Part shown: piece by piece, positions 3,343-30,916 of the stretch
Layout: each line of letters starts with the position of its first letter
Numbering within the stretch: the stretch's first letter is position 1
NCBI GenBank assembly: GCA_016207925.1
Contig: JACQZB010000130.1
Location: 1 to 62,369 of the forward strand
DNA length: 62,369 nucleotides
Direction of reading: 5' to 3'
Origin: Nitrospinota bacterium
GTDB lineage: Bacteria; Nitrospinota_A; UBA7883
Translations under genes and position numbers: made by a program
The notes under the pieces: model-generated
Database searches by the model: none
Told to the model about the DNA's origin: nothing
Seen by the model: only the letters and a program-made list of their open reading frames with translations

Positions 3343-3663
3343 ATGGCGAAAATGAAGCCAATTCATCCCGGTGAAGTGTTGCTGGAAGATTTTCTGTCGC
3401 CGCTGGGGATCAGCCAGAACCTTTTGGCGCGTGAAACACGAATGTCCCCTCGCCGTATCAACGAGATTACGCTGGGCAAGAGGGCCATCACAGGCGACAC
3501 GGCGATACGGCTGGGGTTATTTTTCGGTGTCGAGCCGGAGTTTTGGATGAACCTCCAATCCCGCTACGATCTGGAATCCGCGCAGGGTGAATTTGAATCC
3601 CGCCGCCCGAAACTTTCCATCAGGGCGGGCCGTTATAAGGCAGTGGCGGCGGCGTCCCGCTAA
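3343..3663 (+). CDS. higA: HigA-type antitoxin (XRE-family HTH)
   Basis: IHPGEVLLEDFL...GISQNLLARETRMSPRRINEITLGKRAITGDTAIRLGLFFG..EFWMNLQ is the HigA/VapI signature. Confidence 0.9.
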   Translation: MAKMKPIHPGEVLLEDFLSPLGISQNLLARETRMSPRRINEITLGKRAITGDTAIRLGLFFGVEPEFWMNLQSRYDLESAQGEFESRRPKLSIRAGRYKAVAAASR

Positions 3664-3733
3664 CCGTTACCGCGCGGGGCGGATTGTGGTAAACTTTAGC
3701 GATAACCGGATTTTCACAGGAGACTAGGTGGCA

Positions 3734-4453
3734 ATGACGAACGAACGGACGACCGGCGCCTACGCCGGCTACCGAGACGCGGAAGCCGCCGCCGAGCAGC
3801 GGCGGTTCATGGTGCGGGTCTATAACTGGATGACCGCCGGACTGGCGTTGACCGCCGCGGTGGCGGGCATCGTGGCCTCCGACGAGGCGCTGCTCCAGCT
3901 TATTTTCGGCAACACCCTCATCGTCATCGGCTTGGTGATCGCCCAGTTGGGGCTGGTGTTCTGGCTGGCCGCGCGGGTCCACCAGATGAGCGCCATGACC
4001 GCCACCTCGGTGTTCATGGGCTATTCCGCCTTGACGGGGCTGACCTTCGCCTCAATCTTCGTGGTGTACCCCATCGCCACGGTGGGCAGCGCGTTTGTGG
4101 TGACCGCGGGCGCGTTCGGCGCCATGAGCGTGTACGGCTACACCACCCAGCGCGACCTTACCTCGTGGGGCAGCTTTCTGTTCATGGGGCTTATCGGCAT
4201 CGTGCTGGCCTCGCTGGTGAACCTGTGGATGGCCAGCCCCGCCGTGCAGTGGGTGGTGACCTATGCGGGCGTGCTGATCTTCACCGGCCTGACGGCGTAC
4301 GACACCCAAAAAATTAAACAGATGAACATCCTGGGCAACGAAGGCACCGAGGAAGACACCAAGGAAGCCATCAGCGGCGCCCTGGCGCTGTACCTGGACT
4401 TCATCAACCTGTTCCTGATGATCCTGCGGGTCATGGGGGGCAACCGCGACTAA
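3734..4453 (+). CDS. Bax inhibitor-1/YccA family membrane protein
   Basis: About 7 TM segments and a C-terminal ...TAYDTQKIK... motif. AGGAG lies about 11 nt upstream of the ATG at 3734. Confidence 0.88.
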   Translation: MTNERTTGAYAGYRDAEAAAEQRRFMVRVYNWMTAGLALTAAVAGIVASDEALLQLIFGNTLIVIGLVIAQLGLVFWLAARVHQMSAMTATSVFMGYSALTGLTFASIFVVYPIATVGSAFVVTAGAFGAMSVYGYTTQRDLTSWGSFLFMGLIGIVLASLVNLWMASPAVQWVVTYAGVLIFTGLTAYDTQKIKQMNILGNEGTEEDTKEAISGALALYLDFINLFLMILRVMGGNRD

Positions 4454-4474
4454 CCGCCGCGCGAACGCGACACC

Positions 4475-4508
4475 AACCGGGGGGCGGCGGCGCTCCCCGG
4501 TTTTTTTA
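4475..4508 (+). terminator. Rho-independent terminator after the BI-1 gene
   Basis: The stem is aaccgggg (4475-4482) pairing with ccccggtt (4495-4502), followed by a T-run through 4507. Confidence 0.6.
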
Positions 4509-4524
4509 TTTGGACGATGCGATC

Positions 4525-4839
4525 ATGAATCTGCCGCAAGACCCGTTTTCGTCATGGCGTTCCGAACGCCTGAAAAAGGAGTCGCTGGCCCGGCGCATCC
4601 TGGGTGTGGAAGAGGGGGCGGACTTTACGCAGGTCAAACGGGCGTGGCGCAGGCTGGCGCGTGAATATCATCCCGACGCCGGGGGCGCCTCCTGGCGGTT
4701 CATGAACATCCACAACGCCTGGCGTGTGCTGGCGCAGGGCGCCGACGAGCCGCTGATAGACGACGCCCGCCCGAAGCCGCGCGACCCGCGCCAGGATGAG
4801 CGCGACTACTTCAACTGGTGGCTGCGCCGCTGGCGGTGA
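4525..4839 (+). CDS. Small J-domain-only protein
   Basis: Contains ...VKRAWRRLAREYHPD.. (HPD tripeptide in a J-domain helix II/III context). No Gly/Phe or zinc-finger region. The start choice (ATG 4525 vs TTG 4510) is uncertain. Confidence 0.65.
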   Translation: MNLPQDPFSSWRSERLKKESLARRILGVEEGADFTQVKRAWRRLAREYHPDAGGASWRFMNIHNAWRVLAQGADEPLIDDARPKPRDPRQDERDYFNWWLRRWR

Positions 4840-8663: not shown

Positions 8664-10172
<1,509 letters not shown>

Positions 10173-10187
10173 CCGGGGAAATCAGCC

Positions 10188-12178
<1,991 letters not shown>

Positions 12179-13534: not shown

Positions 13535-14661
13535 CTTACCTGCAAGGGGGAGACGGACTGAAGCGAAGGGAGTTTCTTGCCACCGCGGGGCTGGCCGCGG
13601 CGGGGCTGGCGGCGTGTTCAAAACCGGCGGCGGAACCCAAGCCGCAAGCGCCCGGCGCCGCGGCGAGAAAAACCTACGAGTGGAAAATGGCCACTTCGTG
13701 GCCGCCCGGTTTCCCTGTATTCCAGACCGGGATGGAGCAGTTCGCCGCGCGCGTCAAGGAGATGAGCGGCGGGCGGCTCTCCATCCGCGTCTATGCCGGG
13801 GGCGAATTGATACCGCCGCTGGAGGTGTTCGACGCGATCTCCGCGGGCACGGTGGAGATGGGGCACTCCGCCTCTTACTACTGGGCCGGCAAGGCGCCGG
13901 AGCTGCAACTGTTCACCACCTCGCCCTTCGGGCTTACCGCGCAGCAGTTCAACGCATGGTTCTACCACGGCGGCGGGCTGGAGCTGATGCACGAGATGTA
14001 CAAGCCGTACAACATCATCACGTTCCCCTCATGCAACACCGGCGTGCAGATGGGCGGCTGGTTCAACCGCAAGATCGAGCGCATCGAGGACTTCAACGGG
14101 CTTAAAATGCGCATCCCCGGCCTGGGCGGCAGGGTGGTGGCCAAGGCGGGCGTCAACGTGGTGCTGATGGCCGCGGGCGAGTTGTACACCGCGTTGGAGC
14201 GGGGAACCATTGACGCGCTGGAATGGGTGGGGCCGTACCACGACCTTAAGCTCGGTTTCTACCGCGCCGCCAAGTACTACTATTACCCCGGCTGGCACGA
14301 GCCGGGCACCATGCTGGAGCTGATGGTCAACCTCAAGGCGTGGGAGTCGCTGCCGAAGGATCTGCAAATGATCGTTGAGGCCGCCGCCGCGCAGAGCAAT
14401 CTGCTTGGGCTGGCGGAGTTCGACGCGAAAAACGGCGAAGCGCTCAACGAGTTGGTGAACACGTATAAAGCGCAGGTACTCAAGTTCCCCGATGAGGTGT
14501 TAAAGACGCTGCACGGCTACGCGCGGGAGGTGCTGGAGGAGGAGGCGGCCAAGTCGCCCGGCCAACGCAAGGTGTACGACGCCTTTCGCGCCTTCGCCGG
14601 ACGGGTGGAGCCGTGGACCCGCATGAGCGAACGCGCCTTCATGGAAGCCAAGGGGCTGTGA
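13531..14661 (+). CDS. TRAP transporter substrate-binding protein (DctP-type) with a Tat-like signal
   Basis: Contains RREFLATAGLAAAGLAAC, W-K-M-ATSWP, and AGGELIPPLEVFDAISAGTVEMGH. Confidence 0.85.
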   Translation: MTYLQGGDGLKRREFLATAGLAAAGLAACSKPAAEPKPQAPGAAARKTYEWKMATSWPPGFPVFQTGMEQFAARVKEMSGGRLSIRVYAGGELIPPLEVFDAISAGTVEMGHSASYYWAGKAPELQLFTTSPFGLTAQQFNAWFYHGGGLELMHEMYKPYNIITFPSCNTGVQMGGWFNRKIERIEDFNGLKMRIPGLGGRVVAKAGVNVVLMAAGELYTALERGTIDALEWVGPYHDLKLGFYRAAKYYYYPGWHEPGTMLELMVNLKAWESLPKDLQMIVEAAAAQSNLLGLAEFDAKNGEALNELVNTYKAQVLKFPDEVLKTLHGYAREVLEEEAAKSPGQRKVYDAFRAFAGRVEPWTRMSERAFMEAKGL

Positions 14662-14668
14662 CCGGCTT

Positions 14669-15748
14669 ATGATGAAGCGCCGTCAATTCTTTTTGGTTTC
14701 CGCTCTAACCGCGGCGGGTGTTATCGCCGGCGCGCCCGCGATTCACGCCAACACGAAATTCTCGTGGAAACTGGTCACCTCGTGGCCGCCCAACTACCCC
14801 ATCCTGCAAACCAGCATCGAGGCGATGGCCAAGCGCATCGAACAGATGAGCGAAGGGCGGCTTGCCATCCGGGTGTATGCGGGCGGCGAGTTGGTTCCGG
14901 CGCTGGAGGTGTTCGACGCGGTGAGCGCGGGCACGGTGGAAATGGGAAACGGCGCCTCCTACTACTGGGCGGGCAAGGTTCCCGAAGCGCAGTTTTTCAC
15001 CTCCATCCCCTTCGGCTTTAACGCGCAGCAGATGAGCGCGTGGCTCAATTTTGGCGGCGGGCTGGAGTTATGGAACAAGGCTTATGAGCCGTTCAACCTG
15101 ATCGTGATGCCCGCGTTGGAAACCGGCGCGCAGATGTCCGCCTGGTATAAAAAGGAGATCAAGTCGCTGGCGGATTTGAAGGGGCTTAAAATGCGCGCGC
15201 CGGGATTGGGCGCCAAGGCCATGGCCAAGGCGGGCGTCTCCATCGTGCTTCTGCCGGGCGGTGAGTTGTACACCGCGCTGGAACGCGGAGTGATTGACGC
15301 GGCGGACTGGATCGCTCCCTATCACGACATGGCGCTGGGGCTGCACCGCGCCGCCTCCTACTACTACCATCCCGGCTGGCGCGAGCCGTGCGGCGTGTGC
15401 GAATTGACCGTCAACCGCACAGCATGGGACAGCCTGCCCAAGGACCTGCAAGCCATCGTCCGCGCGGCGGCGGCGGAGAATTACGTGAAAACGCTGGCGG
15501 AATTCGACGTGAACAACGCTCAGGCGCTACGCGAGTTGCGCGAGACTTACAAGGTCAAGGTGACCCGCTATCCCGATGACGTGCTGCGCGCGTTCAAAAA
15601 ATACGCCAGTGAGACGATACAGGAACTGGCGGCGGTGAGCCAGAACGCCCGCGCCATTTACGATTCGTACCACGCGTTCGCGGGCAAGGTCGGGCCGTGG
15701 ACGGAAAAAAGCCAGCGCGCTTACATGGCGGCGAAGGATGTGATGTGA
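14669..15748 (+). CDS. TRAP transporter substrate-binding protein, tandem paralog
   Basis: Has an RRQFF signal, WKLVTSWPPNYP and AGGELVPALEVFDAVSAGTVEMGN. It is clearly a paralog of the upstream gene. Confidence 0.85.
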   Translation: MMKRRQFFLVSALTAAGVIAGAPAIHANTKFSWKLVTSWPPNYPILQTSIEAMAKRIEQMSEGRLAIRVYAGGELVPALEVFDAVSAGTVEMGNGASYYWAGKVPEAQFFTSIPFGFNAQQMSAWLNFGGGLELWNKAYEPFNLIVMPALETGAQMSAWYKKEIKSLADLKGLKMRAPGLGAKAMAKAGVSIVLLPGGELYTALERGVIDAADWIAPYHDMALGLHRAASYYYHPGWREPCGVCELTVNRTAWDSLPKDLQAIVRAAAAENYVKTLAEFDVNNAQALRELRETYKVKVTRYPDDVLRAFKKYASETIQELAAVSQNARAIYDSYHAFAGKVGPWTEKSQRAYMAAKDVM

Positions 15749-20670: not shown

Positions 20671-21609
20671 ATGAAGAACGTAGTAGTCACCGGTCTTGGC
20701 ATGGTCACGCCGCTGGGTATCGGCGTGCCGGCCACCTGGCAGGCCGCCCTTGAGGGCCGGTCGGGCGTAGGCCTCATCACCCGTTTCGACGCCGCCGACT
20801 ATCCTTGCCGCATCGCCGCCGAAGTGAAAGGCTTCGAGCCGCGCGATTACATAGACGGCAAGGAAGTCAAGAAAATGGATACCTTTATCCACTACGCCAT
20901 CGCCGCGGCCCGGTTCGCCCTGACGGACGCGGGCATCGAGCCGGAAAAGCCCCCCGAAGAGGAGCGGCGGCGCGTGGGCGCCGCGCGGGCGCTCTCACGC
21001 CGAAACGACGAGCCGCGGAAGGCCAGCCGCCCCTTCGACCGCGACCGGGACGGATTCGTCATGGGCGAGGGCAGCGGCGTGGTGTTGCTGGAGCGGCGCG
21101 ACCGCGCGCTGGCCCGCGGCGCCAAAATCTACGCCGAACTGGCCGGCTACGGCATGAGCGCCGACGCCTACCACATCACCGCCCCGCCGGAAGGGGGCGA
21201 AGGCGCCGTCCGCTGCATGACCAACGCCTTGGCCGACGCGGGCGTGGCGCCGGAGACGGTTGGCTATATCAACGCCCACGCTACCTCCACCATGGCCGAC
21301 GCCATCGAAACCCAGGCCATAAAAACCGTGTTCGGCGAGCAAGCCCGCAAGCTGGTGGTCAGTTCCACCAAATCCATGACGGGGCATTTGCTGGGCGCCG
21401 CCGGCGGCGTGGAGGCGATCTTCGCCCTTAAGGCGATGGAAACGGGCATGATCCCGCCCACCATCAATCTGGATAACCCCGACCCCGCGTGCGACCTGGA
21501 CTACGCCCCCCACAAACCCGTCGCGCGGACGCTGGACTGCGTCCTGTCGAATTCATTCGGTTTCGGAGGCGTCAACGGCACGCTGGTATTCAAAAAATTC
21601 ACCCCCTAG
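20671..21609 (+). CDS. fabF: FabF-like 3-oxoacyl-ACP synthase II with an in-frame internal deletion of about 100 aa that removes the active-site Cys region
   Basis: 312 aa versus about 410 in the family. The N-terminus ([13 protein letters not shown]) and C-terminal half ([32 protein letters not shown]) are intact. However, ..RRVGA|[11 protein letters not shown].. skips the segment that normally holds the ..ACATG.. nucleophile. Confidence 0.85.
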
Positions 21610-23018: not shown

Positions 23019-23074
23019 CCGTGTTTCTGTGTAAAGGGCGCAAAAAAGGGATTTGCGCACCATGCCTCTACCCA

Positions 23075-23102
23075 GACCGTGGTCAGGCGGCCACGGGGAA
23101 GC
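23075..23102 (+). repeat. 28-nt GC-rich hairpin unit (GACCGTGGTCAGGCGRCCACGGGGAAGC), copy 1
   Basis: Identical except for one base to 42761-42788. The core is the hairpin gtggtc-aggc-gaccac. Confidence 0.8.
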
Positions 23103-23171
23103 GTGAAAAGGGCGCCACGACCAGTAAGGGAGAGGAGCCGATTCGCCACCGCGGTCGTTTCTTAATTTGCG

Positions 23172-23232
23172 GGAGCGCGGGCATCTTGCCCGCATTGTAT
23201 TTTATCCATTGCGGGCGGGACGCCCGCGCTCC
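23172..23232. repeat. Imperfect 26-nt inverted repeat (ggagcgcgggcatcttgcccgcattg / cattgcgggcgggacgcccgcgctcc)
   Basis: The arms at 23172-23197 and 23207-23232 match at 22/26 positions after reverse complementing. Each arm also contains its own small hairpin. The repeat lies between the convergent queE and rseP genes. Confidence 0.75.
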
Positions 23233-23322
23233 TGTAATGGGGATACGGCTACCGTTGCCCCTACGGGAACAACTATGTACGAATCCCGAAACCCTGAACG
23301 CAGTGAAGGGCCTTGCAGCCTC

Positions 23323-24459
23323 TTACCCCCCCATGATCCGCATGATGTCGTTGTAGAAGGCGAAGACCATCAACGACAGCAGGAGGAAGATGCCTACCTG
23401 CTGGGCGATTTCCTGATGGCGCAGGTTGAGCGGTTTACCCAACACCGATTCGATGGTGTAAAAAAGAATGTGCCCGCCGTCCAGCACCGGGATGGGCAGC
23501 AGGTTCAAAATGCCCAGGTTCACCGAGATCAGCGCCACGAACAGCAATAACTGCGTCACGCCCTTTTGCGCCTGCTGGCCGGCGAGCTGCATGATGCCCA
23601 CCGGGCCGGCGATTTCGCTGGCCGGAATCTCGCGTGAGATCATTTTACCGATGGACCACACCGTCAGGCTGACCATGTTCCACGTCCACTCCGCGCCCTT
23701 GTACAGCGCCACGTGGGGCGGGTAGGCGGTGATCTCCGTGGTGGGCATCACGCCGATGCGCCCGACGGTGATCTCCTTGCCGTCAATCGTTTTTTCGGTG
23801 TCCGTACCCGGCGTGACGGTGATGGTCAAAGCCTCGCCGGAGCCGTCTCGCAGGATTCCGATGGAAAGTTCCTTGCCCGCCGACTGGCTGATGATGCGCT
23901 GGATCTGGCCCCAGCTTTCCATCGGTTCGCCGTTGACCGAATCAATCCGGTCCCCCGGCTTGAACCCCGCCAGCGCGGCGGGTTTGCCTTCCACCATTTC
24001 GCCGATCACCCGGCTGGCGGTGGGCAGACCCGCCATGGCCGCCACGGCGGCGATGAGCACAGCCAGGCCGATGTTGAACAGCGGCCCCGCCGCCACGATG
24101 GCAAGCCGCTTTTTCACCGGCTGGTTCAAAAACGATTCGGCGGCGGCCTTGGGGTCAATTTCCTCCTCGCTTTCGTCGCCGTAGAATTTGACGTAGCCGC
24201 CCAGCGGCACGGCGCAGAGCATGTATTCAGTGTCTCCGCTTTTGCGCCCGAACAGCTTGGGCCCGAAACCTATGGAGAAACGCTCCACCCGCACCCCGCA
24301 CAGGCGCGCCACGATGAAATGGCCGAACTCGTGCGCCACGATCAAAAGCCCCAGCACAACCGTGGCGATGAAGATAAATTCAGTCCACCCGGCGATTTTC
24401 TCGAACGGGGTGGCCGCCGCCGCTCCGGCGAGCGCGTACACGTACGTCATCAACCTCAC
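23323..24459 (-). CDS. rseP: RIP site-2 metalloprotease RseP (M50 family)
   Basis: Contains HEFGHFIVAR (HExxH) within a TM helix, a central PDZ domain, and a C-terminal ..NLLPIPVLDGGH.. motif. Confidence 0.9.
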   Translation of the reverse strand: MRLMTYVYALAGAAAATPFEKIAGWTEFIFIATVVLGLLIVAHEFGHFIVARLCGVRVERFSIGFGPKLFGRKSGDTEYMLCAVPLGGYVKFYGDESEEEIDPKAAAESFLNQPVKKRLAIVAAGPLFNIGLAVLIAAVAAMAGLPTASRVIGEMVEGKPAALAGFKPGDRIDSVNGEPMESWGQIQRIISQSAGKELSIGILRDGSGEALTITVTPGTDTEKTIDGKEITVGRIGVMPTTEITAYPPHVALYKGAEWTWNMVSLTVWSIGKMISREIPASEIAGPVGIMQLAGQQAQKGVTQLLLFVALISVNLGILNLLPIPVLDGGHILFYTIESVLGKPLNLRHQEIAQQVGIFLLLSLMVFAFYNDIMRIMGG

Positions 24460-25130
24460 TCCTTGTTCTTGTCCTTGGTCAGCGACACCACCCGCGCCCC
24501 GGAAGGCGGGGTGAAGGTGAACAACTCCGCGGGCGCCGCCTCGTTGGTTTGCATGTCCGTGAACGCCAACTTGCTGCGCGCTCCAAGATGGTCAACGATT
24601 AGTATCTCCCTGGGCAGATACGCCCCATCATCTACGGTCAACGCCATTCCCTTGACTCCTGACCGGAAGCTTTTGGGGAACAGGCGCAGGCGGATCTGAC
24701 CATCGTTTTTTAGTGTAGCGTTTTTTGGCGGCGGCGACAATTCAATATCGAACAGAGCGGTCAGCGGGGTTTCGCCCGCCAAGAACAGCCCTGGCGAGCC
24801 GGATTCCAGCAAGTCCGAAAGCTCCTCGCGATAGACGGTGTTCTCCTTTTGGTCGTGGCGCCACAGCGCCACCCCGTCGGCGACGATGAGCAGCCCCGGC
24901 GGATCGGTGTACTCCCAGCGCATTTTAAGCGGCTTTTGAATCCACAGCCTGCCCTTGAGCGTCTGGGCGCCGCCCCACGTTTTGCCCTTGGTTTCCTGGT
25001 TAAAAGCCGCGGAGAGCGAGCGCGTGGCATCCAGCGCGGCCTGGACGCGGCGGATGGTTTCTTCCAGCCCCGGCGCCGGATTGTCCGCCGCCAGCAGGGC
25101 GGACAGGGCCAGGGCGCACACAAGCTTCAT
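24456..25130 (-). CDS. lolA: Outer-membrane lipoprotein carrier protein LolA
   Basis: Signal peptide, then ..F.Q......LKGRLWIQKPLKMRWEYTDPPGLLIVADGVALWRHD.., which is the LolA pattern. Confidence 0.8.
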   Translation of the reverse strand: MKLVCALALSALLAADNPAPGLEETIRRVQAALDATRSLSAAFNQETKGKTWGGAQTLKGRLWIQKPLKMRWEYTDPPGLLIVADGVALWRHDQKENTVYREELSDLLESGSPGLFLAGETPLTALFDIELSPPPKNATLKNDGQIRLRLFPKSFRSGVKGMALTVDDGAYLPREILIVDHLGARSKLAFTDMQTNEAAPAELFTFTPPSGARVVSLTKDKNKE

Positions 25131-25137
25131 CGGGCGG

Positions 25138-25767
25138 TCAGAGGGCCGTAACCCGCGCCACGCGGCCCGCCGCGGGCGGGGCCACCTTCCCCGCGGCGAT
25201 AAGCGCCACGGCTTTGGGGTAGAGCCGGTGCTCCTGCTCCAGAATGCGCGCGGAGAGGGTTTCCACCGTGTCGTCCGGCTCCACCGGGACGCACGCTTGC
25301 AGGATGATGGGGCCGGTGTCCACGCCGGCGTCCACGAAATGCACCGTGCACCCGGCCACCTTCACGCCGTAGTCCAGCGCCTGCTTTTGCGCGTCCAGGC
25401 CGGGGAACGCGGGCAGAAGCGACGGATGGATGTTGATGACCATGCCGCCGAACCGTTCAAGGAAGACCGGGGAGAGCACCCGCATGAAACCCGCCAGGCA
25501 GACCAGCCGCGCGCCCGCCGCCAGCGCCGCATCCGCCAGCGCCGTGTCGAACGCCGCCCGCGAGGCGTAATCCTTTCGCTCCACCACCACGGCGGGCACG
25601 CCTTGCGCCCGCGCCCGCTCCAGCGCCGGGGCGCGGGGATTGTCGGAAACCACCGCCGCGACGCGCGCCGGAATGGCGCCGCGCGCGCAGGCGTCCTGCA
25701 ACGCCTGGAAATTCGATCCGCGCCCGGAGGCCAGCGCCGCCAGCGGCAACAGCTCACCCGGCGGCAT
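25138..25767 (-). CDS. purN: Phosphoribosylglycinamide formyltransferase
   Basis: Contains ASGRGSNFQAL, INIHPSLLPAFPG and ..GCTVHFVD... Confidence 0.93.
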   Translation of the reverse strand: MPPGELLPLAALASGRGSNFQALQDACARGAIPARVAAVVSDNPRAPALERARAQGVPAVVVERKDYASRAAFDTALADAALAAGARLVCLAGFMRVLSPVFLERFGGMVINIHPSLLPAFPGLDAQKQALDYGVKVAGCTVHFVDAGVDTGPIILQACVPVEPDDTVETLSARILEQEHRLYPKAVALIAAGKVAPPAAGRVARVTAL

Positions 25768-27787
25768 ATTCTTTCATCACCGGAGCGGCCCCGGCGATTT
25801 CCGCGGCGATTTTCTTGACCATTGCCAGGTTGTGCGTATGGCCGGAGCGCCTGGCGGTGAAGCGCCCAAGGATCGGGCGGCCCAGCAGGTACAGGTCGCC
25901 GATGAGGTCGAGTATCTTGTGGCGCGCCGGCTCGTTGGGGAAGCGCAGCGGCGTGTTGACGATCTTCTCGCTGTCAATGAGGATGAAGTTCGACAGCTTG
26001 CCGCCGGAGGCCAGCCCGGCCTCCTCGAGCATCTTGATGTCCTTCAAAAATCCGAAGGTGCGCGCGGGCGCGATGGATTCGCGGTAGCGCTCGCCGGACT
26101 GATACACGTAATGGTGCTCCTGCTTGCCGATGGGCGGAGGATAGTCCAGGTAGTAGTGGATGGAAAACTCCTCCGCCGGTTCCACTGAAAGCGACGGCCC
26201 ATGGTCAAAGTCGCCCACGGACAAGGGCCGGTCAATGACGATAGGCTCGATGACGGCGTCCTGATCCTCCACCTCGCCGTTTTCGATGATCTGGCAGAAG
26301 TCCAGCGCGGAGCCGTCCATGATGGGGGCCTCGTCCCCCACCTTCACCAGCAGGTTGGTGATGTGGTAGCTGTGCAGCGCGGACAAGATATGCTCGATGG
26401 TTTTGATGTTGACGTCGCCGCGGGCCAGGGTGGTGGCGTACTCGGTGGAGCGCACATTCTCGGGGCGGGCCTCCACGCGCACGCCCGAGCCGATGTCCCA
26501 GAACACGATCCCCGAACCGGGGGGCAGGGGGGTAAGGATCAGGCCCGTCTTGATGCCCGAATGAAGCCCCTGGCCGCACAGCACCACGGAATTGCGCAGC
26601 GTCCGCTGGGGCAGGGCGCGGCGCGACGAAGCGGCGCCCGCGGCGGCCGGCGCGGTCCGGCGCCCGCGCGCCTCGGACAGGCTGGTGACCAAGGCGCCGC
26701 GGCCCGCGATGGAGATATGCGCGCCGGTAAGCTGGCGATCTTCGCAGGCAAGCGTGGCCAGTTCCAGGAAATTGTAAAGCTCGCGCGTGTTGCCCGGCAG
26801 CGGCGAGTTCGCCAGCGCGTCAATAAGCGCGCCCTCCACGCGGTCTATCTGCTTGTGGTACTTGTGGGCCAGGTCGCGCACGAAACACTCCACGATCACC
26901 GGCACGTCCTCCGGACGGCAGGAAAGCGGCGTAAGCGTAATCAGCGACGGGCCAAAAAAATCCATCACGGCCCGTGGCGCCGCCGAGGCCCGCGTCCGCG
27001 CCCGGGGCGCGCCTCCGGCCAGCAGGCGCAGCAATACCCGCTGCAGCTTGGCGGGAAGAAAGTCCACCCGCTCCAGGTACAATGAGCCGCCATCCGCCTG
27101 CCCCACGGCGCCGCCCCCGGCGCCCAGCAGCGCGGCGAACCGCCGTTCGTCCATCCCCTCAAGCGATACCGTGACAAAAGGCTTGCCGGCCCTCCGGGAG
27201 CGCTGGTGGATCAGGTTGGCGGCGGCTTCCTTGCCCAGCCCGGCGGGGCCAAGGATCAGCGCGGGCTGGTCGTGGCGCGCCGCGTCCTCGATCTGCGCCC
27301 GCACGCGCTGGGCCTCCGGCGACACGCCGGCGAACCAGCTTTCCAGCGGCAGCCCTTCGGCGGCGGCCGCGGCGGCCGGCTGGGCCACGGCCATGCGTTC
27401 CTCCCGGTGGCGCAGGGCGTCGGCCACGGAGCGCAGGATTTTTTCGAGCGAGAACGGTTTTTCGATGAAGTCGTAGGCCCCCAGCTTGGTGGCGCGCACG
27501 GCGGTGTCTATGGCGCCGTGCCCGCTCATCATCACCACTTCGAGATTCTGGTCAATGTTCTTGAGAATCTTGAGCGTCTGGATGCCGTCTATGCCGGGGA
27601 CCCAGATGTCCAAAAGCGCCAGGTCGGGCGCCTCGGCGCGCGCCATGCGTAGCGCGGTTTCGCCATCCTCGGCCAGGGCCACCTCGTATCCCTCGTCGGT
27701 GAGGATGCCCTGCAGGGCCTTGCGGATGTTGGCCTCGTCGTCCACTACGAGGATTTTCGCTTTCGCCATTGGTTTGATGTTCAGCAT
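25754..27787 (-). CDS. lpxC: Fusion protein: response-regulator receiver, degenerate NtrC/NtrX-type AAA+ module, and a full UDP-3-O-acyl-GlcNAc deacetylase (LpxC)
   Basis: aa ~8-125 form the REC domain (ILVVDDE.., LALLDIWVPGIDG, DFIEKPF). aa ~150-375 form a sigma54-activator-like module with GPAGLGKE, LYLERV, no GAFTGA loop, and ..PGNTRELYN... aa 392-677 form LpxC (QRTLRNSV..GQGLHSG, TIEHILSAL, ARTFGF, RHKILDLIGDLYLLG, RSGH). No HTH domain is present. Confidence 0.85.
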   Translation of the reverse strand: MLNIKPMAKAKILVVDDEANIRKALQGILTDEGYEVALAEDGETALRMARAEAPDLALLDIWVPGIDGIQTLKILKNIDQNLEVVMMSGHGAIDTAVRATKLGAYDFIEKPFSLEKILRSVADALRHREERMAVAQPAAAAAAEGLPLESWFAGVSPEAQRVRAQIEDAARHDQPALILGPAGLGKEAAANLIHQRSRRAGKPFVTVSLEGMDERRFAALLGAGGGAVGQADGGSLYLERVDFLPAKLQRVLLRLLAGGAPRARTRASAAPRAVMDFFGPSLITLTPLSCRPEDVPVIVECFVRDLAHKYHKQIDRVEGALIDALANSPLPGNTRELYNFLELATLACEDRQLTGAHISIAGRGALVTSLSEARGRRTAPAAAGAASSRRALPQRTLRNSVVLCGQGLHSGIKTGLILTPLPPGSGIVFWDIGSGVRVEARPENVRSTEYATTLARGDVNIKTIEHILSALHSYHITNLLVKVGDEAPIMDGSALDFCQIIENGEVEDQDAVIEPIVIDRPLSVGDFDHGPSLSVEPAEEFSIHYYLDYPPPIGKQEHHYVYQSGERYRESIAPARTFGFLKDIKMLEEAGLASGGKLSNFILIDSEKIVNTPLRFPNEPARHKILDLIGDLYLLGRPILGRFTARRSGHTHNLAMVKKIAAEIAGAAPVMKEYAAG

Positions 27788-27815: not shown

Positions 27816-30155
27816 TCAATCCGCCGCCAACTCGATGCGGAACACCGCGCCAGTGGGCGCGTTGGGCAGCAGGGAAATGCGCCCCCCGTGCTCCTCCACG
27901 ATTTCGCGCACGATGGCCAGCCCCAGCCCCGTGCCATCCTCCTTGGTGGAAAAGTAGGGCTGGAACACCTTGTCGGCGATGGCGGGGTCCACGCCCGCCC
28001 CGGTGTCCTGCACCTCCACCACCACCATGCGCTCCTCCGGCCACAGCCGTGTGCGGATAGTGACCACCCCTCCGCCGTTAAGCGCGGCGATGGCGTTCTC
28101 CACCAGGTTGATGATGACGCGCCGGAACCGCTCCGTATCCAGAGTGACCAGTTGCACCTTGGGGTCAAGCTCCGTGGCCAACTTCACGCCGGGCCGGGTG
28201 TCGCGGTAGAGCTTGACCACGTCGTAGATGAGGTCGTGGAGCATCACCGGCTCCGGGTTGGTTTTGAGCAGCCCCTGCATGTCGGGACGCGAGTCGGAAA
28301 GGCCCGGTTCGGCCAGCGCGGCGAACTGCTTGAACTTGTCCACCAGGGCCTTGAGCTGGTCCACCTCCTGGATGATCACCTGCGTGGCGTCGTCAAGAAC
28401 GCGGGGGAAGTCGCCGGCGCCCTGCGCGAACTTGCGGCGGATGCGCTGGGCGTTGAGTTGGATGGGGGTGAGCGGATTCTTGATCTCATGGGCGATCTGG
28501 CGCGCCATTTCGCGCCAGGCGATGGCGCGCTGGGCGGCGATCATGTCGGTGACGTCGTCGAACACGAACACCATGCCCATGTACTGCCCCTCATGGTCGT
28601 ACAACACGGAGACGTTGGTCTTGAGCGTGCGCTTCCTGCCGTGGAGCACAATGGGGATTTCGCGTTCGATGGCGCGGGCGCCTTTTTCGCTCATGTCGCG
28701 GATGGCTTGCCGGATCGGTTCAAGGCTGGAGGGGGAGAACAGCTTGCGGTAGCTGCGCCCGCGCGCTTTTTCCTGATCAATGCCGAACATGCGCGCGGCG
28801 GCGTCGTTGATGGTGGTCACGGCGCCGGTCTTGTCTATGGAGATGACGCCGCCCACGTTTTCGAGCACCGCTTCGATGTACTGGCCCCAGTGGTACAACT
28901 CCAGGTTGGATCCGGACAGTTCGCGGTTGGAGCGTTCCACCTGCTCCTTGAAGCTTTTCAGGTCCTCCGTCATCCGGTTGAAGGCGCGCACCAACTGGCC
29001 CACCTCGTCGTCCTTGATGGGGATGTCCACCCGCGTGTCCAGGTCGCCGCGGGAAACGGCCATGGCCGCCTCGGAAAGCTTTTGCAGCGGCACGGTGATG
29101 CCCTTGGCCACATAAAAACCGAACCACACCGCCGAAAAGACCACCACGAGGGTCACCACGCCAAGGGTCACCTTGTACGAGGCGCGGATGATCTCCTTGC
29201 GCAGCGAAAGCTGCTTGTAGTCCTGGAACGCCTCCACGATGCCGTGCACCTTGTCAATAAGCCGCTTGGAAAGCACCTTGATGACCACCACCGCGCCCTT
29301 GGACTGTTCGCCCAAGGGGCGGGGCGGGATGGGCGCGATGGCGATGACGTAGGTAGGCTCCCCTAGGTCGTCCACCACGGAGACCGACTCTCCCGCCGCC
29401 ACCTTGGCCAAAGAGTCGCCATGCGTGGCCAGATCGAACGGCGGCAGCTCCACTTCCTGGTTGGGCCGGGTGGCCTCCGCGGCCAGCGTAAAGCCGGGGC
29501 CGTACACCTGGATGATGTCCACCCCGTATTCGCGCACCTTCTGGCGCAGCAGCCAGCGCAAGCTGCCGCGCGCGCCGATATCCAAAAGCTGGCGCGTGTG
29601 CGTCAGGCTGGAAAGGGTGCTGGCGAACGAGCCGGTTTCATCCTGGCTGGCGCGGTACAGGCCCTCGGCCACGTTGAGCGACTCCTGCAGCGTGCGCTCG
29701 ATGCGGGAGTTGATCCACTTGTCAACGGTGTCGTTGATCAGCTCGGAGGCCACGGTGTACATCAGCGCCGAGGGGATGAGCGTCATCGCCAAAAACGCCA
29801 CCACCAGCTTGGTCTGGAACCGCGACCCGGCCACGCCGCCGCGGCGGTCGAAATACAGCTTGATGAGCCGGCGAAAGACCAGCACCGCCATCACCATCAG
29901 CAGAATCACGCTGACGTTAAGCGCCAGGGCCACGGCGATGTCGTTGGCGATGGGGGCGTCCACGCTGGTGTCGCGCCAATACAGCGCGGCCAGCGTCATC
30001 AGCACCAGCAGCGCCGCCGTCCCCAGGATCACAAAGCGGGTCTTGCGTTTGCGCGAGGCGGTGATGGAGTTGGGATCAAGGTCCTCGTAAGACCCCGGTA
30101 TGAAAATCCACTTCAGGAGGTTGAACGCCTTGCGGAACAGTTCACGCGGAGTCAT
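27816..30155 (-). CDS. NtrY-like sensor histidine kinase (multi-TM, HAMP, PAS, HisKA, HATPase)
   Basis: Contains an N-terminal TM bundle, a HAMP domain (..PLQKLSEAAMAVSRGDLD..), a PAS domain, the H-box IAHEIKNPLTPIQL, an N box (NLVENAI) and G boxes (DTGAG, GTGLGL). Confidence 0.88.
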   Translation of the reverse strand: MTPRELFRKAFNLLKWIFIPGSYEDLDPNSITASRKRKTRFVILGTAALLVLMTLAALYWRDTSVDAPIANDIAVALALNVSVILLMVMAVLVFRRLIKLYFDRRGGVAGSRFQTKLVVAFLAMTLIPSALMYTVASELINDTVDKWINSRIERTLQESLNVAEGLYRASQDETGSFASTLSSLTHTRQLLDIGARGSLRWLLRQKVREYGVDIIQVYGPGFTLAAEATRPNQEVELPPFDLATHGDSLAKVAAGESVSVVDDLGEPTYVIAIAPIPPRPLGEQSKGAVVVIKVLSKRLIDKVHGIVEAFQDYKQLSLRKEIIRASYKVTLGVVTLVVVFSAVWFGFYVAKGITVPLQKLSEAAMAVSRGDLDTRVDIPIKDDEVGQLVRAFNRMTEDLKSFKEQVERSNRELSGSNLELYHWGQYIEAVLENVGGVISIDKTGAVTTINDAAARMFGIDQEKARGRSYRKLFSPSSLEPIRQAIRDMSEKGARAIEREIPIVLHGRKRTLKTNVSVLYDHEGQYMGMVFVFDDVTDMIAAQRAIAWREMARQIAHEIKNPLTPIQLNAQRIRRKFAQGAGDFPRVLDDATQVIIQEVDQLKALVDKFKQFAALAEPGLSDSRPDMQGLLKTNPEPVMLHDLIYDVVKLYRDTRPGVKLATELDPKVQLVTLDTERFRRVIINLVENAIAALNGGGVVTIRTRLWPEERMVVVEVQDTGAGVDPAIADKVFQPYFSTKEDGTGLGLAIVREIVEEHGGRISLLPNAPTGAVFRIELAAD

Positions 30156-30916
30156 GGGCTTTCAGGAACAGCGCCCTTGACGGGTTCGGGCGCCGGGGCG
30201 GGCGCGGCTTCGGCGCCGGCGAGCGTAAACACCGTGGACTCGGTCCATGGCGTGTCGAAATCCAGGAACTTAAGGAAAAACAGGAGGATGTTGAACGGCG
30301 GGATCAACTTGATGGATTTCATTTCGCACCGTACCCGCAGGTAATATCGTCCGCCCGCGGGCAACCCGTCAACCGGCCCCAAGTCAAACTTTTCCAAGAC
30401 GGTCATCCAGCGGCGCATATCTTCCGGTTTTTTCAGAACCACCGGATCCAAAACCGGCGGCGGAGGGTTTTGTCCGGCGCCGCGCGGCGCGGCCTCGGCG
30501 GGTTTGGGAGAGCTTTTGTCTTCGGGCGTCACCTTGCGCAACTCGGCGTCGAAGGTAAGCTCGTCTTCATCCTCCCCGCGTTTTTCCCAGGTAAGGTATT
30601 CCTTTTTGAGCGTGTCGAACTTCACCATGCGGCGGATCGCCACCTCGCGTTCCGCCTTGTCCCACACCACCGCGCGGTGGCGCCGCAGCTCCACAAAATA
30701 GGTGAAGGCCAGGGGCGCGCCGCTGTCAATGGTGGCGCGGATTTCCTGGGTGAAAGCCCCGCGCAGTTCCGCCGAAACGCCAATCCGCTCCGGCGGGCCT
30801 TGGCGGGAGACTTCGAGGATGTAGGCGTCCTCCGCCGCGGCGGGGGCCGCGCCGGAAAGCCAGAGCAACGCCGCCAGCGCAGGCCAGAGCCGCATTGCGG
30901 GGGAGAACACCGCCAT
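30152..30916 (-). CDS. DUF4390-like periplasmic protein
   Basis: Has a signal peptide. The pattern is remembered from DUF4390 proteins that precede ntrY-type kinases (..FTYFVELRRHRAVVWDK.. and C-terminal ..FLDFDTPW..). ATGA overlap with the kinase gene. Confidence 0.65.
   Translation of the reverse strand: MAVFSPAMRLWPALAALLWLSGAAPAAAEDAYILEVSRQGPPERIGVSAELRGAFTQEIRATIDSGAPLAFTYFVELRRHRAVVWDKAEREVAIRRMVKFDTLKKEYLTWEKRGEDEDELTFDAELRKVTPEDKSSPKPAEAAPRGAGQNPPPPVLDPVVLKKPEDMRRWMTVLEKFDLGPVDGLPAGGRYYLRVRCEMKSIKLIPPFNILLFFLKFLDFDTPWTESTVFTLAGAEAAPAPAPEPVKGAVPESP

Follow-up and report, generated by a model that had tools for sequence, protein, structure and literature searches.

LpxC (UDP-3-O-acyl-GlcNAc deacetylase) carries out the committed, flux-controlling step of lipid A synthesis and is a major antibiotic target. 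Its best understood control is that of Escherichia coli, by FtsH/LapB proteolysis and not by an attached receiver, and to our knowledge the balance between lipopolysaccharide and phospholipid synthesis is largely an open question in other phyla. Receivers that gate an attached enzyme are found in the CheB methylesterase, in the diguanylate cyclases PleD/WspR and in RpfG, all of them response regulators with enzymatic output domains. Here we describe a gene of a Nitrospinota bacterium, ntrX::lpxC, located on contig JACQZB010000130.1 (assembly GCA_016207925.1; the whole stretch analyzed, 62,369 nucleotides [nt], is referred to below as the window), in which a regulator resembling NtrX is joined to a complete LpxC. 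The reading that we favor, and regard as reasonably probable, is that LpxC serves as the C-terminal output of a response regulator derived from NtrX, which would place the enzyme under phospho-control by an NtrY-type kinase. By analogy, the logic would be that of CheB, PleD/WspR and RpfG, although the output here is a core envelope biosynthetic enzyme rather than a signaling enzyme, and in the long form of the fusion, to which the window protein belongs, a vestigial AAA+ module and sometimes a helix-turn-helix (HTH) stand between the receiver and the enzyme. The fusion would then be a response regulator with enzymatic output, a known kind, and its new part would be the use of the lipid A committed enzyme as that output. 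The bifunctional LpxC-FabZ fusion (NCBIfam NF009667) is likewise a natural union of LpxC with a protein of a linked pathway, but there the partner is a second enzyme placed C-terminally, whereas in the window it is a signaling module placed N-terminally; the LpxC-FabZ model matches the LpxC part only, with 205 bits, below its cut-off of 465.

The fusion gene is a single uninterrupted open reading frame (ORF) on the reverse strand (Table 1), its length being counted from the first of two in-frame ATGs (Met1 and Met7, window 27769-27787). The starts of its relatives match Met7, which is also the start of the identical database protein P0267 (NCBI, NCBI nr; window 27769, 671 amino acids [aa]), identified by cluster look-up as the window protein itself; look-ups of the exact sequence gave no entry. 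A sequence-only reading of this stretch had proposed an ORF that opens as an NtrX/NtrC-type regulator with a receiver (REC) domain and continues into a complete LpxC just downstream of an NtrY-like kinase, and our analysis supports each of these points. The receiver was recognized by Pfam, the phospho-acceptor context LALLDIWVPGIDG is present and contains D60, and the motifs quoted in that reading (GPAGLGKE, LYLERV, TIEHILSAL, ARTFGF, RHKILDLIGD and RSGH) were all located in the ORF. The LpxC domain matched Pfam PF03331 with 274 bits (cut-off 27) over profile positions 1 to 267 of 268, as well as the NCBIfam lpxC equivalog TIGR00325 with 253.8 bits, above the cut-off of 187.25. Residue-for-residue alignment to Pseudomonas aeruginosa LpxC (5u39) recovered the zinc ligands H466, H623 and D627, the catalytic E465 and H650, the conserved T577, K624 and D631, and also F578. 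By every criterion tested, the protein is, as judged from its sequence, a member of the LpxC family, and by the same token it is a receiver-domain protein. It resembles the stand-alone LpxCs of E. coli, P. aeruginosa and Aquifex aeolicus in its full-length domain, in all catalytic and zinc-binding residues and in its fold, and differs from them in the approximately 390 regulatory residues placed in front, and in belonging to a distinct, nearly all-fused clade, with 36 to 44% identity to ordinary LpxCs.

For the N-terminal half, the best NCBIfam model was NtrX (NF051870), with 215 bits against a cut-off of 600 and a match covering model positions 2 to 254 of 452. This is under the NtrX equivalog threshold, yet descent from an NtrY-partnered regulator is clear. 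Among solved structures, the N-terminal 344 residues were matched best by Brucella abortus NtrX (PDB 5M7N/5M7O/5M7P; E value of 1.7e-45), which also matched in fold and shares with the fusion a REC, an AAA+ core devoid of the GAFTGA loop and a lid. The similarity to NtrY/NtrX systems extends to the partner kinase, with its NtrY_N-HAMP-PAS-HisKA arrangement followed by HATPase_c, and to the HTH of some fusion relatives (see below), although the NtrY_N match of the kinase is marginal (24.5 bits versus a cut-off of 23.2). The window clade departs from NtrX in having a C-terminal LpxC and no HTH. The next best solved match was NtrC1 (1NY5, 4L4U); enhancer-binding proteins of the NtrC1/DctD type have the same REC-AAA+ order and a helical linker between the two domains. 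The stop codon of ntrY lies 28 nt upstream of the fusion start, and the two genes are apparently cotranscribed. Among the best 25 NCBIfam matches listed there was no fusion-specific model, and the names given by the sources to fusion relatives are plain LpxC or NtrX.

To assess the spread of this architecture, we searched a collection of 5.8 billion proteins, which returned 1,615 matches, and examined the best 120. REC, Sigma54_activat, lid and LpxC were found together in all of these (38 to 92% identity) save one 402-aa fragment, and the long fusion is common to at least 120 protein clusters. Within these best 120 of 1,615, the named sources of long fusions were Nitrospinota, Nitrospinae or Nitromaritima. 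Some relatives are located on contigs of 1.2 to 3.25 Mb, and others in species-representative genomes. One of them (P0001, 92% identical) was found on five contigs, and the three displayed came from three different samples with the same gene order; the window DNA is collinear with a P0001 contig across the AAA+/LpxC junction. These data bear on one alternative, namely, that a deletion on the window contig fused separate ntrX and lpxC genes, so that the fusion would be an assembly or annotation artifact or a pseudogene. In its favor, the contig does have in-frame deletions compared to its closest relatives, one in the AAA+ core and another in the nearby fabF. However, neither touches the LpxC junction, the first being approximately 130 codons upstream of it, and the junction that the sequence-only reading placed at 26600 to 26720 recurs on independent contigs of up to 3.25 Mb, in species-representative genomes, in at least 120 clusters and in collinear DNA, so that a deletion joining two genes is excluded. 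We therefore rejected this explanation, to which we give practically no credence, and the fusion is confirmed as a genuine protein architecture.

Both ends of the protein are strongly constrained, as shown by a family alignment of the window protein and 119 full-length relatives (120 sequences). The receiver acidic pair, the phospho-acceptor Asp, the Ser/Thr at the position of S88 and the Lys were kept in 119 to 120 of the 120, the nine LpxC catalytic and zinc residues were invariant (120/120), and the key residues of both domains were also nearly invariant in an additional 43 long and 59 short fusions. Mean pairwise identity reached 0.66 in both REC and LpxC but stood at 0.32 in the AAA+ core, 0.34 in the lid and 0.15 in the linker between REC and AAA+. 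The copy is not a degenerate lpxC, a case that the sequence-only reading had kept in mind, since its nine residues are invariant and its LpxC domain is as conserved as the receiver. Only one LpxC was found in the 62-kb window, and only one in the flanks of up to 10 kb around its relatives.

The AAA+ module between the two ends evolves about twice as fast as they do. It had been described from the sequence as dead, a view that holds for the Walker B motif and for the missing GAFTGA loop but not for Walker A, since GPAGLGKE (residues 180 to 187) is a normal, intact GxxGxGK (kept in 116 of the 120 sequences) and gives no evidence of death. At Walker B, E239-R240 occupy the place where D-E is expected; just 44/120 members retain the aspartate, and the six commonest residues at the position of the glutamate are N, K, R, D, Q and G, without E. 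Neither of the two arginine-finger positions has Arg, and GAFTGA was absent from the window and from every displayed member of the alignment. Without GAFTGA, the Walker-B glutamate and the arginine fingers, the module cannot be a sigma54 activator or an ATPase, and is predicted to be noncatalytic across the family. As the P-loop is retained, however, it may still bind nucleotide, and the middle of the protein can be regarded as a fast-evolving putative pseudo-ATPase. Brucella NtrX also lacks GAFTGA but keeps a Walker B (YLDEV) and the FREDLFHRL motif, neither of which is kept in the fusion family, and unlike NtrC1/DctD the window fusion has no GAFTGA, Walker-B DE, arginine fingers or HTH. The Pfam Sigma54_activat match was itself partial (aa 154 to 257, profile positions 3 to 118 of 168). 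In the window copy, an in-frame deletion has in addition removed the residues ILASCEE[G/A]ARRG, which correspond to the beta4/sensor-I strand of the AAA+ core (Table 1). The 12-residue segment is retained in P0001 and in a 95% identical relative (P0268), and the loss of these 12 codons appears to be strain or assembly specific.

The sequence-only reading also supposed that LpxC stands in place of the HTH. This is true of the window clade, but 48 of the 120 members (approximately 725 to 770 aa, one of them on a 3.25-Mb contig) keep a 53-residue module of the Fis type between the lid and LpxC. The profile of this module matched the DNA-binding domain of NtrC4 (2.5e-9) and the C-terminal HTH of NtrX (3.8e-6; NtrX residues 408 to 454) in the PDB, whereas Pfam HTH_8 gave no match to the module of the long relatives. 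There are thus fusions of LpxC to an entire NtrX-like regulator. The HTH is absent in the window and in 72/120 members, and in the window clade, without a DNA-binding domain, the enzyme is the only possible output of the receiver. The HTH-bearing members raise the alternative that LpxC acts as a ligand sensor for lipid A precursors, in a protein with a mainly regulatory role, and that members with an HTH would exert this role on transcription, as bifunctional or moonlighting transcription factors; the intact sigma54 activators that adjoin lpxC in unfused relatives (see below) would suit this as well. Yet the majority, the window clade among them, have no HTH, there is no sigma54 activation without GAFTGA, and a mere sensor would have no need of an invariant general base, zinc ligands, T577, K624 and H650, so we judge this alternative improbable.

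A scan with one genome per species yielded at least 80 loci, which were classed by ORF and domain. The architecture is more general than the sequence-only reading had supposed. The long fusion was found at at least 12 loci and, beyond Nitrospinota, in metagenome-assembled genomes (MAGs) labeled Desulfomonile, Desulfomonilaceae, Syntrophaceae and Thermodesulfobacteriota. A short REC-LpxC fusion (approximately 425 to 470 aa) without AAA+ was present in at least 36 species genomes. One is that of an isolate, Desulfopila sp. IMCC35006, and among the labels of the others are Thermoanaerobaculia, Holophagae, Aminicenantes, Syntrophobacter, Syntrophorhabdus, Binatia, Thermodesulfovibrionia, Nitrospirota, Omnitrophota, Leptospirales and Myxococcota. 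Receiver and LpxC were separated by 20 to 111 aa or by 254 to 352 aa, a cleanly bimodal distribution. In the short forms, the receiver and LpxC catalytic residues are retained with hardly an exception, and at least seven of these fusions are located directly downstream of ntrY. It follows that the pairing of receiver and LpxC is the selected unit and that the AAA+ module is dispensable. About 1 kb downstream of one short fusion (L032), a second ORF (3639-4613, forward strand) closes with 73 residues that share 49% identity with part of the LpxC domain, which could reflect a partial duplication or an artifact of assembly.

With nothing but the LpxC domain as the query, we also searched 1.84 billion representatives exhaustively. 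Long and short fusions filled almost all of the top approximately 45 places, and ordinary LpxCs (270 to 310 aa) began at approximately 215 bits and 37 to 44% identity. In a neighbor-joining LpxC tree, with classes set by the distance from REC to LpxC, the clade spanned by the long fusions comprised 44 long and 43 short fusions. In its 8 other members no receiver could be detected, but 6 of these extend far at the N terminus and probably represent long fusions that were truncated. Its sister clade holds 12 more short fusions, and 103 of the 110 stand-alone sequences fall outside the fused clade. Long and short forms are interspersed, which fits a repeated loss of the AAA+ module. Three candidates for unfused close relatives were rejected: P0143, which starts at a non-Met residue; P0151, with a garbled, frameshift-like middle; and P0124, a fragment starting in the HTH. 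Another sequence near the fused clade, P0159 (290 aa, the length of a stand-alone enzyme), has ARSFNT in place of ARTFGF and TSHG in place of SGH, suggesting a divergent or noncatalytic LpxC paralog.

At at least 14 other loci, labeled Geobacter, Desulfuromonadales, Desulfobacteraceae, Syntrophaceae and Deferrimicrobia, the scan recovered an unfused cluster in the order lpxC-DUF4390-ntrY-regulator. The regulator is of the NtrC1/DctD type and typically an intact sigma54 activator, with GAFTGA, LDE, FREDLYYRL and HTH_8. Together with the short fusions adjacent to ntrY, these lpxC-DUF4390-ntrY-ntrX clusters indicate that the link between two-component signaling and LpxC is recurrent. As the unfused NtrY-partnered regulators keep GAFTGA, its loss in the fusion may be independent of that in alphaproteobacterial NtrX. 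A sigma54-like -24/-12 element was found on the sense strand within 170 nt upstream of lpxC at 8 of the 14 unfused loci examined, compared with a mean of 0.74 of 14 loci in random windows of the same loci (maximum of 4 in 2,000 draws) and none on the antisense strand; this enrichment is only suggestive, because these loci share ancestry and the search pattern is a permissive one. The elements lie 55 to 150 nt upstream of the stand-alone lpxC (loci L059, L060, L062, L066, L075, L081, L083 and L086), two examples being TGGCAGAAAACTTGCA in L060 and TGGCAACAAAATTGCA in L075. This suggests that the transcription of lpxC might be sigma54 dependent in the Desulfobacterota-type genomes with unfused clusters.

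Fusions of functionally linked neighbors are common, and the proximity of lpxC and ntrYX in these other lineages could mean that the fusion serves only coexpression or colocalization with an envelope stress pathway, with a receiver that does not regulate the enzyme. An idle receiver should decay as the AAA+ module has done, but its phospho-acceptor set is instead invariant and the domain is as conserved as LpxC; the REC-LpxC pairing, moreover, outlasts the loss of both the AAA+ module and the HTH. We consider this explanation very improbable.

Architecture, conservation, residue states, synteny and the evolutionary series are what the data show, and they leave two-component control of LpxC, as the sequence-only reading had suggested, as the best supported interpretation, whereas its phospho-control and the phosphorylation-driven oligomerization put forward at the same time are steps that we infer. 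Some signal would act through the NtrY-type kinase and its DUF4390 partner and lead to phosphorylation of D60, which would alter the dimer or oligomer state of the receiver. The change would be relayed to LpxC through the nonhydrolyzing AAA+ scaffold and the flexible linker or, in the short forms, through a linker of 20 to 60 residues alone, and the outcome would be a switch in LpxC activity or in its access to substrate. A membrane sensor kinase would probably control outer membrane synthesis directly in this manner, and not via gene expression or proteolysis. We infer that phosphorylation affects LpxC activity, in one direction or the other, with NtrY as the cognate kinase.

We modeled the window protein with AlphaFold2, using an alignment of 102 sequences. 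Every domain folded confidently despite the deletion (mean pLDDT of 85.3), with low confidence at the linkers (residues 136 to 143 and 373 to 388) and a pTM of 0.51; well-predicted domains connected by uncertain linkers are in line with the reading that we favor. The modeled LpxC part was close to A. aeolicus LpxC (TM score of 0.89 to 0.90, root mean square deviation of 2.6 Å), the modeled N-terminal half matched the folds of NtrX and NtrC1, and the LapB-LpxC complex 8v24 was among the structure matches. Several observations weigh against an output domain under phospho-control. With this pTM, the model predicts no fixed interface between the regulatory part and LpxC, and therefore no allosteric route is visible in it. 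ntrY does not adjoin the fusion in the Nitrospinaceae- and Desulfomonile-type loci examined, so that the pairing with the kinase is not universal. The neighbor-joining LpxC tree has no support values. Finally, the window copy lacks one strand of the AAA+ core, which an assembly error or partial damage to the allele could explain.

The predicted flexible linkers and the lack of a fixed interface would also suit a different mechanism, in which the receiver and the AAA+ module set the amount of LpxC and not its catalysis, through a phospho-dependent degron or the recruitment of a protease, as a two-component version of FtsH/LapB turnover. Regulated proteolysis is the established control of LpxC in E. 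coli, and a P-loop kept without hydrolysis would suit an adaptor or scaffold. On the other hand, RseP (a membrane site-2 protease) aside, no protease or adaptor gene is conserved beside the fusion, and the short REC-LpxC forms, without AAA+, still keep the pairing. We regard control of the amount of LpxC as unlikely.

Should the receiver indeed govern LpxC activity, a wider interpretation is possible, which we put forward tentatively: bringing the committed lipid A step under two-component phospho-control may be widespread and experimentally uncharacterized, and may have evolved by short-circuiting an older transcriptional circuit. It would extend over Nitrospinota, several Desulfobacterota lineages and Acidobacteriota, as well as over MAGs labeled Binatia, Nitrospirota/Thermodesulfovibrionia, Omnitrophota, Myxococcota and Leptospirales. 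The ancestor would have been an NtrY-partnered sigma54 activator encoded beside lpxC, with a sigma54 promoter upstream of lpxC. Once fused, the protein would have lost stepwise the sigma54 contact, the ATPase, the HTH and finally the whole AAA+ module, leaving REC-LpxC. In the long form, the P-loop could bring in the nucleotide or energy state as a second input. The covalent union of a receiver and LpxC in many phyla points to posttranslational control of lipid A flux by a membrane kinase, and the fusion would provide a concrete output in the envelope for NtrY-type kinases and the DUF4390 protein that accompanies them. The series from unfused genes to the full fusion, to the loss of the HTH and then of AAA+ would depict a transcription factor turned into an enzyme regulator, and would also illustrate how a dead AAA+ module may persist as a scaffold.

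The fusion is located directly downstream of ntrY in the window and at four other loci (L001, L005, L007 and L009), and the P0001 contigs have the gene order glgB-DUF4390-ntrY-fusion-purN-lolA-rseP. The DUF4390 gene is the constant upstream partner of ntrY at fused and unfused loci, making its product, with a signal-peptide-like N terminus, a candidate periplasmic accessory of the NtrY kinase. On the other side, purN is directly 3' of the fusion in most of the Nitrospinota-type loci examined (L004, L005, L007, L008, L017 and L050), a linkage without an obvious functional explanation, and lolA and rseP are usually next after it. The overlapping codirectional genes (lolA and rseP, with fab genes clustered close by) are in keeping with an envelope theme. 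The Nitrospinaceae-type locus L004 (3.25-Mb contig, gene at 10001-12172) carries an HTH-bearing fusion with no ntrY beside it and with RlpA-like, greA and trmB-like genes upstream; its kinase is either encoded elsewhere or absent.

Table 1. Features of the ntrX::lpxC locus, in window coordinates
Feature	Coordinates	Strand	Details and evidence
Fusion gene ntrX::lpxC	25754..27787	-	677 aa; ORF, Pfam, NCBIfam
REC, aa 12-121 (D16/D17 acidic pocket, phospho-acceptor D60, S88, K110)	27425..27754	-	Pfam, E 5e-31
Degenerate sigma54-type AAA+ core, aa 154-285	26933..27328	-	Pfam, family alignment, comparison with Brucella NtrX
In-frame deletion of ~36 nt (12 codons net), ILASCEEGARRGV -> T	26990..27016	-	Comparison with closest relatives; flanked by short CGGGC repeats
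AAA+ lid (AAA_lid_14), aa 291-358	26714..26917	-	Pfam, E 1.6e-11
Ala/Ser/Arg-rich linker, aa 359-391	26615..26713	-	Site of the 53-aa Fis-type HTH in 48/120 relatives
Complete LpxC domain, aa 394-661	25805..26608	-	Pfam, E 1.6e-81
ntrY, NtrY-type sensor histidine kinase (NtrY_N, HAMP, PAS, HisKA, HATPase_c)	27816..30155	-	Pfam
DUF4390 protein, signal-peptide-like N terminus	30152..30916	-	Pfam; 4-nt overlap with ntrY start
purN (formyltransferase)	25138..25767	-	ORF, domains, synteny; start overlaps fusion gene end by 14 nt
lolA (outer membrane lipoprotein carrier)	24456..25130	-	Domains, synteny; same codirectional string
rseP-type M50 site-2 protease with PDZ	23323..24459	-	Domains, synteny; overlaps lolA stop by 4 nt

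Beyond rseP, contig L001 (90% identical) has a PIN/PhdYeFM toxin-antitoxin pair (14508-15181), which is absent at the corresponding place of the window (approximately 23020-23320). The sequence-only reading had noticed deletions elsewhere on the contig. The fabF ORF (window 20671-21609, forward strand) encodes only 312 aa. Its product aligns to residues 4 to 103 and 203 to 413 of P. aeruginosa FabF, so that approximately 100 residues are missing in frame, in the region where the active-site cysteine normally sits. The gap corresponds to either an assembly collapse or a defective allele, and at the breakpoint (approximately 20979/20980) contig L001 carries approximately 282 nt extra.

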